Source: a virus (taxonomy: Duplodnaviria; Heunggongvirae; Uroviricota; Caudoviricetes). From it: DNA of 7,412 nt. Where the stretch lies: IMG/VR virus record IMGVR_UViG_2563366903_000001; one strand, written 5' to 3'. Positions 2,946 through 5,475 of the stretch are shown here, in pieces. Under the pieces are notes generated by a model that was given only the letters and a program-made list of their open reading frames with translations, did no database searches and was not told the DNA's origin. The position numbers and the translations under genes were made by a program. Every line of letters begins with the position of its first letter. Position 1 is the stretch's first letter.

Positions 2946-4255
2946 GAGAGGCGGGCTGGACCAGCCTGTTTCAGGCGGTGGCTGAGCCCTTTTCCGGCGC
3001 CTGGCAGCAGGGCGTGAAAGCCGATCCTGAAGCCGTCCTCTCCTTTCATGCGGTGTTTTCTTGCATTTCGCTGATATCCCAGGATATCGCCAAAATGCGG
3101 CTGCGTCTTATGCAGACGGATGCGCATGGGATACGCAGGGAAACGCGCCGGGGGGATATTGCCCGCCTCTGTCGTCGTCCCAACGCCCAGCAGAACCGCA
3201 TCCAGTTTTTTGAACTGTGGCTGAACGCCAAACTGCGTCACGGCAATACGGTGGTGCTGAAAATCCGTAACTCCCGGGGGCAGATCAAAGAACTGCGTAT
3301 TCTGGACTGGAGCCGGGTTGAACCTCTGGTGGCGGATGACGGCGAGGTGTTCTACCGCATCACGCCGGACCGGAACTGTGGGATCACTGAGGCGGTGACG
3401 GTGCCTGCCCGGGAAGTGATCCACGACCGGTTTAACTGTTTTTTTCATCCGCTTATAGGATTGCCGCCGGTGTATGCCGCCGGGCTGGCGGCCATGCAGG
3501 GGCATCATATTCAGGAAAATTCGACGTCTTTTTTCAGAAATGGCGGCAGGCCGTCCGGGGTGATTGAGATCCCCGGCAGTATTACGGAAGAAAATGCGAA
3601 AAAACTGAAGAGCAACTGGGACAGCGGGTATACCGGCGAAAATGCGGGTAAAACGGCCATTCTGAGCAACGGGGCAAAATACAACCCCACGACGTTTTCA
3701 CCGGTGGATGCGCAGACGGTGGAACAACTGAAGATGACCGCTGAAATTGTCTGTTCGGTGTTCCGTGTCCCGGCCTACAAGATTGGCGTGGGACAACCGC
3801 CTTCCAGTGACAACGTGGAGGCGCTGGAGCAGCAGTATTATTCCCAGTGCCTGCAGACGCTGATTGAGTCCATTGAACTGTTACTGGATGAGGCGCTGGA
3901 AACGGGGGAAAACGAGAGTACAGAATTTGATGTCACCACGCTGCTGAGAATGGACAGTGAGCGGCGCATGAAAACGCTGGGGGATGCGGTGAAAAATACG
4001 CTTCTCACGCCCAATGAGGCCCGTAAACGGGAGAACCTGCCGCCTCTTGCGGGAGGTGACGCACTGTATCTTCAGCAGCAGAACTACAGTCTGGAGGCGC
4101 TGTCCCGTCGTGATGCCCGTGAAGATCCGTTCGCGTCGTCCGGGAAAAGAGTTTCAGCCGAGCTGCCTGACGGCGCATCTGACGGTAATAAGGCAATCAG
4201 TGAAACAGAGCATGATGTGGTGAAGGCGATGTTCAGGGGGATACTGAAAAAATGA
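2891..4255 (+). CDS. Portal protein (HK97-family portal), 454 aa
   Basis: Portal-like motifs: AVLSFHAVFSCISLISQDIAKMRL, HDRFNCFFHPLIGLPPVYAAGLAA, FFRNGGRPSGVIEIPG, and C-terminal LTPNEARKRENLPPLAGGD. First in-frame ATG after the stop at 2873-2875, with GGAG 8 nt upstream. The exact start is uncertain. Confidence 0.85.
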   Translation: MWNLLRRTRKNQKSGRDVREAGWTSLFQAVAEPFSGAWQQGVKADPEAVLSFHAVFSCISLISQDIAKMRLRLMQTDAHGIRRETRRGDIARLCRRPNAQQNRIQFFELWLNAKLRHGNTVVLKIRNSRGQIKELRILDWSRVEPLVADDGEVFYRITPDRNCGITEAVTVPAREVIHDRFNCFFHPLIGLPPVYAAGLAAMQGHHIQENSTSFFRNGGRPSGVIEIPGSITEENAKKLKSNWDSGYTGENAGKTAILSNGAKYNPTTFSPVDAQTVEQLKMTAEIVCSVFRVPAYKIGVGQPPSSDNVEALEQQYYSQCLQTLIESIELLLDEALETGENESTEFDVTTLLRMDSERRMKTLGDAVKNTLLTPNEARKRENLPPLAGGDALYLQQQNYSLEALSRRDAREDPFASSGKRVSAELPDGASDGNKAISETEHDVVKAMFRGILKK

Positions 4256-5475
4256 ATGAACGTGAACTGTCCATTATCCGTGCACTGGGCGAAGAATTCG
4301 CCGCGGTGATAACGGATTTACAGCGTACATTTGAGGGGAAAATAGCCGCGCAGGCACAAATGTTTGAAGAAAAACTGGCTTCCCTGTCTGTGGTATTACA
4401 GAAGTGCGTGACGGGCGATGATGTGCGTCCGATGCTTGAGCAGATGGTGAAGGAGGCTGTAAGCCATATTCCTGTTCCGCGTGATGGTCGTGACTACGAT
4501 CCGGATGTTCTGCAGAAGGCGGTGAATGATGCGGTCGCAAATATTCCGCAGCCAGCGGACGGTAAAAGTCTCACCCCGGATGATGTGCGTCCGATGCTTG
4601 AACAGATGGTGAAGGAGGCGGTAAGCCATATCCCTGTTCCGCGCGACGGTCGTGACTATGATCCCGATGTTCTGCAGAAGGCGGTGAATGATGCGGTCGC
4701 AAATATTCCGCAGCCGGCGGACGGTAAAAGTCTCACCCCGGATGATGTGCGTCCGATGCTTGAACAGATGGTGAAGGAGGCGGTAAGCCATATTCCTGTT
4801 CCGCGTGATGGTCGTGACTACGATCCGGAAGTATTGCAGAAGGCGGTGAATGATGCGGTTGCGAATATTCCGGTACCGGCGAACGGTAAAAGTATCACTC
4901 CCGATGATGTGCGTCCGATGCTTGAGCAGATGGTGAAGGAGGCGGTAAGCCATATTCCTGTTCCGCGCGACGGTCGTGACTACGATCCGGATGTTCTGCA
5001 GAAGGCGGTTCTGGATGCGGTGAGTGCCCTGCCGGCTCCGCAGGACGGGCGTGATGCCACGGCACTGGAAATACTCCCCGCCATTGACGATCAAAAATCC
5101 TTTCCCCGGGGCACGTATGCCACACACCAGGGCGGACTCTGGCGGGCGTATGAAAAAACGCACGGGATGCGGGGATGGGAATGCCTGGTTGACGGGGTGG
5201 CCGATATTGACGTCAGCATGACCGGCGAACGGTCGTTCACTGTGGTGGTCCGGCAGAGCAGTGGCCAGCGTACGGAAAAAACATTTTCCCTGCCGGTGAT
5301 GCTCTACCGCGGTGTGTTCAGAGCCGGTGAAACCTACCACCCCGGCGATACGGTGACGTGGGGGGGCTCGCTGTGGCACTGCAACAGTATGACCGAAGAT
5401 AAACCCGGAGAAGCTCATTCATCAGCCTGGACCCTGGCTGCAAAACGTGGGCGGGATGCAGGAGGCGGAAAATGA
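4252..5475 (+). CDS. Repeat-containing putative virion protein of unknown function (407 aa): N-terminal coiled-coil, 54-aa tandem repeats, C-terminal carbohydrate-binding-like domain
   Basis: ATG overlaps the portal stop (ATGA at 4252-4255) and the stop overlaps the adaptor start (ATGA at 5472-5475). Codon bias matches the operon. The protein has about 3.7 tandem copies of DDVRPMLEQMVKEAVSHIPVPRDGRDYDPDVLQKAVNDAVANIPQPADGKSLTP. The C-terminus has a Y..GD.VT..G..W......T...PG.....W.L pattern. Confidence 0.75.
   Translation: MNERELSIIRALGEEFAAVITDLQRTFEGKIAAQAQMFEEKLASLSVVLQKCVTGDDVRPMLEQMVKEAVSHIPVPRDGRDYDPDVLQKAVNDAVANIPQPADGKSLTPDDVRPMLEQMVKEAVSHIPVPRDGRDYDPDVLQKAVNDAVANIPQPADGKSLTPDDVRPMLEQMVKEAVSHIPVPRDGRDYDPEVLQKAVNDAVANIPVPANGKSITPDDVRPMLEQMVKEAVSHIPVPRDGRDYDPDVLQKAVLDAVSALPAPQDGRDATALEILPAIDDQKSFPRGTYATHQGGLWRAYEKTHGMRGWECLVDGVADIDVSMTGERSFTVVVRQSSGQRTEKTFSLPVMLYRGVFRAGETYHPGDTVTWGGSLWHCNSMTEDKPGEAHSSAWTLAAKRGRDAGGGK
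4417..5009. repeat. In-frame tandem direct repeat, 162-bp unit, ~3.7 copies (units start at 4417, 4579, 4741, 4903; degenerate continuation to ~5058)
   Basis: Direct comparison of units: copy 1 and copy 2 are identical at 154 of 162 nt. Each unit holds two ~27-aa sub-repeats (IPxPxDG....PD.V...). Confidence 0.9.

Follow-up and report, generated by a model that had tools for sequence, protein, structure and literature searches.

T4 fibritin (gp wac) is composed of an N-terminal attachment region, a segmented helical stalk of variable length and a small conserved C-terminal domain; its gene adjoins the neck genes 13 and 14 and is near-universal in its phage group. SPP1 gp12 is a small collagen-like trimeric capsid auxiliary protein which is encoded between the scaffold and capsid genes and binds to the hexamer centres. 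Collagen-like tail fibres with a ChiC_BD (CBM5/12) head domain, such as those of the Agrobacterium phages 7-7-1 and Milano and of uncultured Caudovirales, belong to the tail/baseplate module and carry a host-specific head.

The gene analysed in this work (4252-5475, plus strand, as are all features given below; referred to as the ORF) lies in a stretch of 7,412 nucleotides (the window) and encodes a separate, fibre-type, acidic protein of 407 aa (pI 4.97, net charge -18). It resembles fibritin in its three-part modular layout, in its location beside neck genes and in being near-universal in its group. However, no match to the Fibritin_C foldon or to gp wac was found at Pfam E<=0.1 or PHROG E<=0.01, the 30-residue foldon has its counterpart in a CBM5/12-type beta domain of about 140 residues, relatives of the ORF turn the stalk loops into collagen repeats, and the phages concerned are siphoviruses with an HK97-type head, in which attachment to the neck is putative. 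The best fold matches of the C-terminal domain were the collagen-like ChiC_BD tail fibres, and members of the ORF family likewise join G-X-Y repeats to a head domain of this type, but the ORF belongs to the head module and its head domain is conserved across host orders. With SPP1 gp12 it shares a siphovirus head module and, as would follow from its relatives, a collagen-type trimer, but the ORF is locked between the portal and adaptor genes and can fuse to the portal. Like SPP1 gp7, Mu gpF and the P22 portal barrel it is encoded just downstream of the portal and is a possible C-terminal extension of it; it differs from these in being acidic and fibre-like with a CBM-type head, and no PF04233 (Mu F) domain was detected in the Pfam search.

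The HK97-family portal gene (2891-4255, 454 aa, TGA stop at 4253-4255) is complete alone: it covers profile positions 2-321 of 321 in PF04860 (E=5.5e-81) and 2-343 of 343 in TIGR01537 portal_HK97 (E=1.4e-105). Its stop codon overlaps the ATG of the ORF (4252-4254) in an ATGA (4252-4255), which is preceded by a run of six A (4247-4252) and reads as a translational-coupling junction. A second ATGA (5472-5475) joins the TGA of the ORF (5473-5475) to the ATG (5472-5474) of a gp6-like head-tail adaptor gene, Ad1 (5472-5798; PF05135, E=1.2e-7, and phrog_40), with a canonical AGGAGG at 5459-5464 upstream of the adaptor start at 5472. Ad1 was the downstream neighbour in nearly all related loci, and the module order was protease-capsid fusion, portal, ORF, Ad1 adaptor and head closure. 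The same 4-nt overlap of portal and ORF was found across Enterobacterales, and the ATGA was kept through three codon contexts (CGA AAA TGA, AGA AAA TGA and AAA AAA TGA). The presence of a repeat-rich ORF between the portal and the head-tail adaptor, reported in the initial annotation, was confirmed, and its position is strictly conserved in related loci; the ORF belongs to the core of an HK97-type head module that is widespread. The initial annotation had missed the ATGA overlap and also a tract of five G (4236-4240), located within the portal codons AGG-GGG-ATA and 12 nt upstream of the ORF start, which together are the source of a 'frameshifted portal' call by PGAP. One extra G in this tract (G6) brings the portal in frame with the ORF and gives an 859-aa fusion.

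The N-terminal region (aa 1-55, 4252-4416) starts with a conserved MNERELS(L/I)I(K/R)ALGEEF and is predicted to form one long helix, spanning aa 3-54 in the structure model, in agreement with the helical region of about 55 residues described before; it may serve for attachment and oligomerisation. The spacer (aa 56-271, 4417-5064) comprises eight 27-aa units, each with a short helix and an IPxPxDG(K/R)D loop. On the DNA level it is a 162-nt tandem repeat present 3.7 times with 92% matches (TRF, 4417-5009), so the earlier count of about 3.7 copies of a 54-aa repeat was reproduced in a protein register of eight 27-aa units. The copy number shifts in 54-aa steps among E. coli relatives (353, 407, 461, 515 and 569 aa), and a Pfam scan of ten long relatives gave no extra domains, the additional length being due to more repeats. 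The C-terminal part (aa 266-402, 5047-5457) is a conserved all-beta domain of about 140 residues with a CBM5/12-type (chitin-binding-type) fold, the corresponding motif YRGVF..G.TY.PGDTVTWGGSLWHC...W at about aa 352-397 and 31 invariant columns across 56 aligned sequences. In the AlphaFold model, which was built from a multiple sequence alignment (the single-sequence model was poor, with pLDDT of 46.6), the pLDDT was about 90 for this domain and low for the spacer, stalk helices included. The hydrophobic periodicity of the N-terminal helix was 3.6-3.67 residues versus 3.5 for a heptad pattern; this value and the low pLDDT of the spacer weigh against a fibre model. A run of seven G inside the C-terminal domain (5360-5366) is shortened to G6 in 3 of 84 relatives, a change that probably accounts for the truncated variants of 379 aa, the loci with the G6 change and those with the truncation not having been cross-matched.

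Runs of at least four G-X-Y triplets occur in 51 of 150 family representatives and in 36 of 95 positional orthologues, in which they replace the helical spacer and reach up to 62 triplets. Such a replacement in proteins encoded at the same position would imply a trimeric fibre. The window protein itself contains no G-X-Y run of at least four triplets, only the IPxPxDG(K/R)D loops. The best PDB fold match was the tail fibre of Agrobacterium phage 7-7-1 (E=4.5e-4), and the fold matches in BFVD were mostly phage collagen-repeat, ChiC_BD and tail-fibre proteins. The PF02839 (CBM5/12) score of the window protein, 21.0 bits, is below the gathering cut-off of 26.2, which the relatives P0272 (26.6 bits) and P0274 (27.3 bits) pass; the small three-stranded beta fold and the Y/W..GD.V.[YW].G..[YW] motif of CBM5/12 are present in the C-terminal domain. 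The resemblance of this region to a carbohydrate-binding module, proposed initially, stands as a fold match to tail-fibre tips and chitin-binding modules with a sub-threshold PF02839 score. The phage-fibre layout proposed at the same time held as far as a modular fibre-type protein is concerned, in view of the collagen-repeat orthologues and the fold matches, but no relationship at the sequence level was found to fibritin, to phi29 gp8.5 or to Hoc.

No part of the protein is better conserved than the C-terminal domain, and in distant hosts this holds for the module as a whole: relatives from Pseudomonas, Marinobacter and Burkholderiales share 50-63% identity with it, compared with 37-55% for the capsid and 42-52% for the portal proteins. 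Conservation at or above the level of the capsid and portal in different host orders speaks against a tip for a strain-specific receptor, and a receptor of this kind is an unlikely target of the domain; the host-range 'glycan-binding tip' suggested by the initial annotation is thus improbable in its usual sense. Since in distant hosts the domain is conserved at least as well as the capsid protein, a general role is probable, for example in assembly, stability, recognition of a conserved glycan of the host or tail-fibre control.

The family is not an undescribed one, contrary to what had been supposed. The ORF matched phrog_1289 (E=7.7e-198) and phrog_2271 (E=1.7e-269), the latter being an 859-position 'portal' profile that covers both ORFs and to which aa 1-405 align at profile positions 455-859, and PF28083 is listed for close relatives in precomputed tables. 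This family (PHROG 1289/2271, PF28083) is catalogued, and widely labelled, as "portal protein", without known function. Pfam and NCBIfam profile searches detected neither PF04860 nor the TIGR01537 portal domain in the ORF, NCBIfam gave no match to it at all, and a search of PDB sequences gave nothing beyond chance matches to helical repeats and a weak match to All3316. Among 5690 family representatives at 50% identity, 148 of the best 150 lack a portal domain and are mostly stand-alone proteins of 250-700 aa. The 'portal' name is an artefact carried over from the fused E. coli form: RefSeq WP_012817878.1 is the fused 859-aa 'phage portal protein', annotated as intact by PGAP, which flags the split form as 'frameshifted' (a pseudogene call). 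Stand-alone members are also mislabelled as 'gp6-like head-tail connector', although they do not contain that domain. A search among characterised phages found the gene only in Stx-type phages, Salmonella phage FSL SP-016, an EBPR phage and a Rhizobium phage, in all of which it is unannotated, and no functional, proteomic or structural study of any family member was found in the literature. The gene is a strongly conserved core gene of a very large HK97-type head-module family.

The arrangement of the gene was compared in 28 outgroup loci from about 20 genera and in viral contigs. It was a separate gene between portal and adaptor in all 26 loci with upstream DNA. Eighty viral contigs were chosen through their portal; all 68 with enough downstream DNA carried the gene between portal and adaptor, and all 65 with a readable junction were split, none fused. 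Candidate starts in the environmental contigs were picked by Shine-Dalgarno (SD) motif and proximity to the portal stop, and the best of them overlapped the portal end by 1-20 nt in 63 of 65. Many outgroup copies have their own SD sequence; those of Pseudomonas and Burkholderiales carry GAAGGAG or AAGGAG and a start codon within the 3' end of the portal. Fused copies were limited to E. coli G6 and a cluster of three 1237-aa members (P0217). As the outgroups are all split, the split state is ancestral. The ORF is an intact gene, as a rule translated on its own, and does not represent the 3' remnant of a disrupted portal gene.

Of 83 copies (the window plus 82 loci from E. coli), 53 were split (G5) and 30 were fused (G6); both states persist in E. 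coli, phage 2851 being fused and phage 1717 split, and one identical coding sequence was seen in both. The G-tract was the only one of 31 homopolymer runs with length polymorphism at high frequency. The A6 run at 4247-4252 was also considered as a fusion site and rejected, as a scan of IMG/VR for A6-8 gave one contig and the junction survey showed the G-tract to be the variable element. The ORF was intact in 53/53 split and 25/30 fused copies. Truncated ORFs, found in 5 of the 30 fused and none of the 53 split copies (Fisher p=0.005, the events not being independent), hint that fusion relaxes selection on the fibre part. The dN/dS ratio was 0.21 for fused and 0.23 for split copies, which indicates purifying selection in both and does not separate them as a test of the functionality of fused copies.

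With slightly better than even confidence, the ORF is interpreted as a separate gene for a portal-coupled homotrimeric fibre, anchored at the portal vertex and presenting the conserved C-terminal domain; its product resembles a fibre of the portal vertex whose head is of the chitin-binding type. The gene overlaps on both sides suggest that it would be synthesised in step with the low-copy portal-vertex proteins; coupling to the portal does not prove a 12-copy stoichiometry. By analogy with the collagen-repeat orthologues the product would form a homotrimer that is fixed to the portal vertex through the N-terminal helix, and the fibre would present the C-terminal domain for binding to an invariant target, which might be another part of the virion or else a conserved glycan, for example peptidoglycan or the LPS core. 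We lean towards an exterior whisker or head fibre, judged about twice as probable as an interior position on the portal crown. The head- or neck-attached fibre of the initial annotation retains its conserved position in the head-neck module, but since common and tolerated portal fusions would put the protein inside the capsid, its exterior location is insecure.

The protein could instead be an internal head protein sitting on the portal crown, comparable in function to SPP1 gp7, to Mu gpF or to the portal barrel of P22, and possibly released or ejected at infection; the ligand of the C-terminal domain would then be DNA, the inner wall of the capsid or, once the protein is ejected, peptidoglycan. 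This is regarded as unlikely, though to be taken seriously. The C-terminus faces the capsid interior in every solved portal, so the frequent and mostly intact fusions to it fit an interior protein better than an exterior fibre. In-frame fusions have two or more independent origins (E. coli G6 and the P0217 cluster), the tract that produces the former alone tolerates frequent length change among the homopolymers of the module, and dN/dS of the fused copies remains low. The gene also directly follows the portal, as do those for gp7 and gpF, and conservation of its C-terminal domain beyond capsid and portal implies an invariant ligand. On the other hand, collagen-like and coiled-coil trimeric fibres with CBM-type heads are, to our knowledge, known only on virion exteriors, the fold matches are tail-fibre tips, and a net charge of -18 would make a poor neighbour for packed DNA. 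The confinement of truncations to fused copies and the lack of a PF04233 match point in the same direction.

An improbable alternative is a decoration or head fibre distributed over the icosahedral shell, like SPP1 gp12 or the head fibres of phi29. A collagen-like trimer would be shared with SPP1 gp12, the capsid gene is only about 1.5 kb away, conservation of the C-terminal domain parallels that of the capsid protein, and the strong SD sequences of distant relatives would permit high expression; yet the gene always lies between portal and adaptor, overlapping on both sides and never adjoining the capsid gene, and portal fusions would be senseless for a shell-wide protein.

That the G5/G6 tract is a heritable contingency switch in a phage structural module, with the fibre free in one state and covalently tethered to the 12 portal C-termini in the other, is similarly improbable. 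If true, a trimeric fibre of the collagen/coiled-coil type would sit on the portal crown within the capsid, an unprecedented location, and EHEC lambdoid and Stx phages would have a phase-variable virion architecture; mixed portal rings could form in multi-prophage lysogens.

It is improbable, and still less to be expected, that G5 phages such as the one in the window make the portal together with a minority portal-fibre fusion by programmed -1 ribosomal frameshifting, the slip taking place either on G-GGG while the rare codon AUA occupies the A site or on A-AAA-UGA. If tRNA-Gly slipped by -1 on AGG-GGG-AUA, the product would have precisely the sequence of the G6 fusion (...FRGDTEKM...), both AGG and AUA are seldom used in E. 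coli, and the ORF frame is open for 12-16 codons upstream, covering the tract. A hairpin at 4262-4328 (z=-3.0) could be added to these features, but it begins 21 nt past the tract, RNAalifold found no conserved pairs in 17 Enterobacterales junctions, and no Rfam element was matched. Moreover, the G-tract is confined to E. coli, AGA GGA standing in its place in most other Enterobacterales (the Pantoea and Phytobacter junctions carry shorter G-rich versions), and distant relatives use an ordinary SD and start codon.

The reading of the ORF as the 3' half of a frameshift-inactivated 859-aa portal gene, and of the prophage portal as defective, is highly improbable and largely refuted: the spanning phrog_2271 profile, the continuous ORF in 30/83 E. 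coli copies and phage 2851, the PGAP flag on the split form and a study of O157 Sakai prophages, in which the portal was scored 'D' in Sp6, Sp9 and Sp12 and '+' in Sp10 (PMC2669165, Table 1), speak for it, but the upstream ORF already holds the whole portal domain, the outgroups are uniformly split, many with their own SD and start, every split E. coli copy keeps an intact ORF under purifying selection, and the ATGA overlap is conserved in all three codon contexts.

In O157 prophages the split form has been scored as a morphogenesis defect, though it is ancestral and intact by comparison with the outgroups, and the "intactness" of Stx1, Stx2c and effector-carrying lambdoid prophages should be revisited. 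For the portal-vertex fibre, tolerated fusion to the portal offers a natural experiment for placing the protein in the virion. A scaffold role was set aside, as the protease-capsid fusion (645 aa) already includes a linker of about 230 aa with coiled-coil matches and the gene is portal-coupled. The portal/ORF junction was present in 1083 of 5426 complete E. coli genomes (about 20%), with 2566 copies in total.

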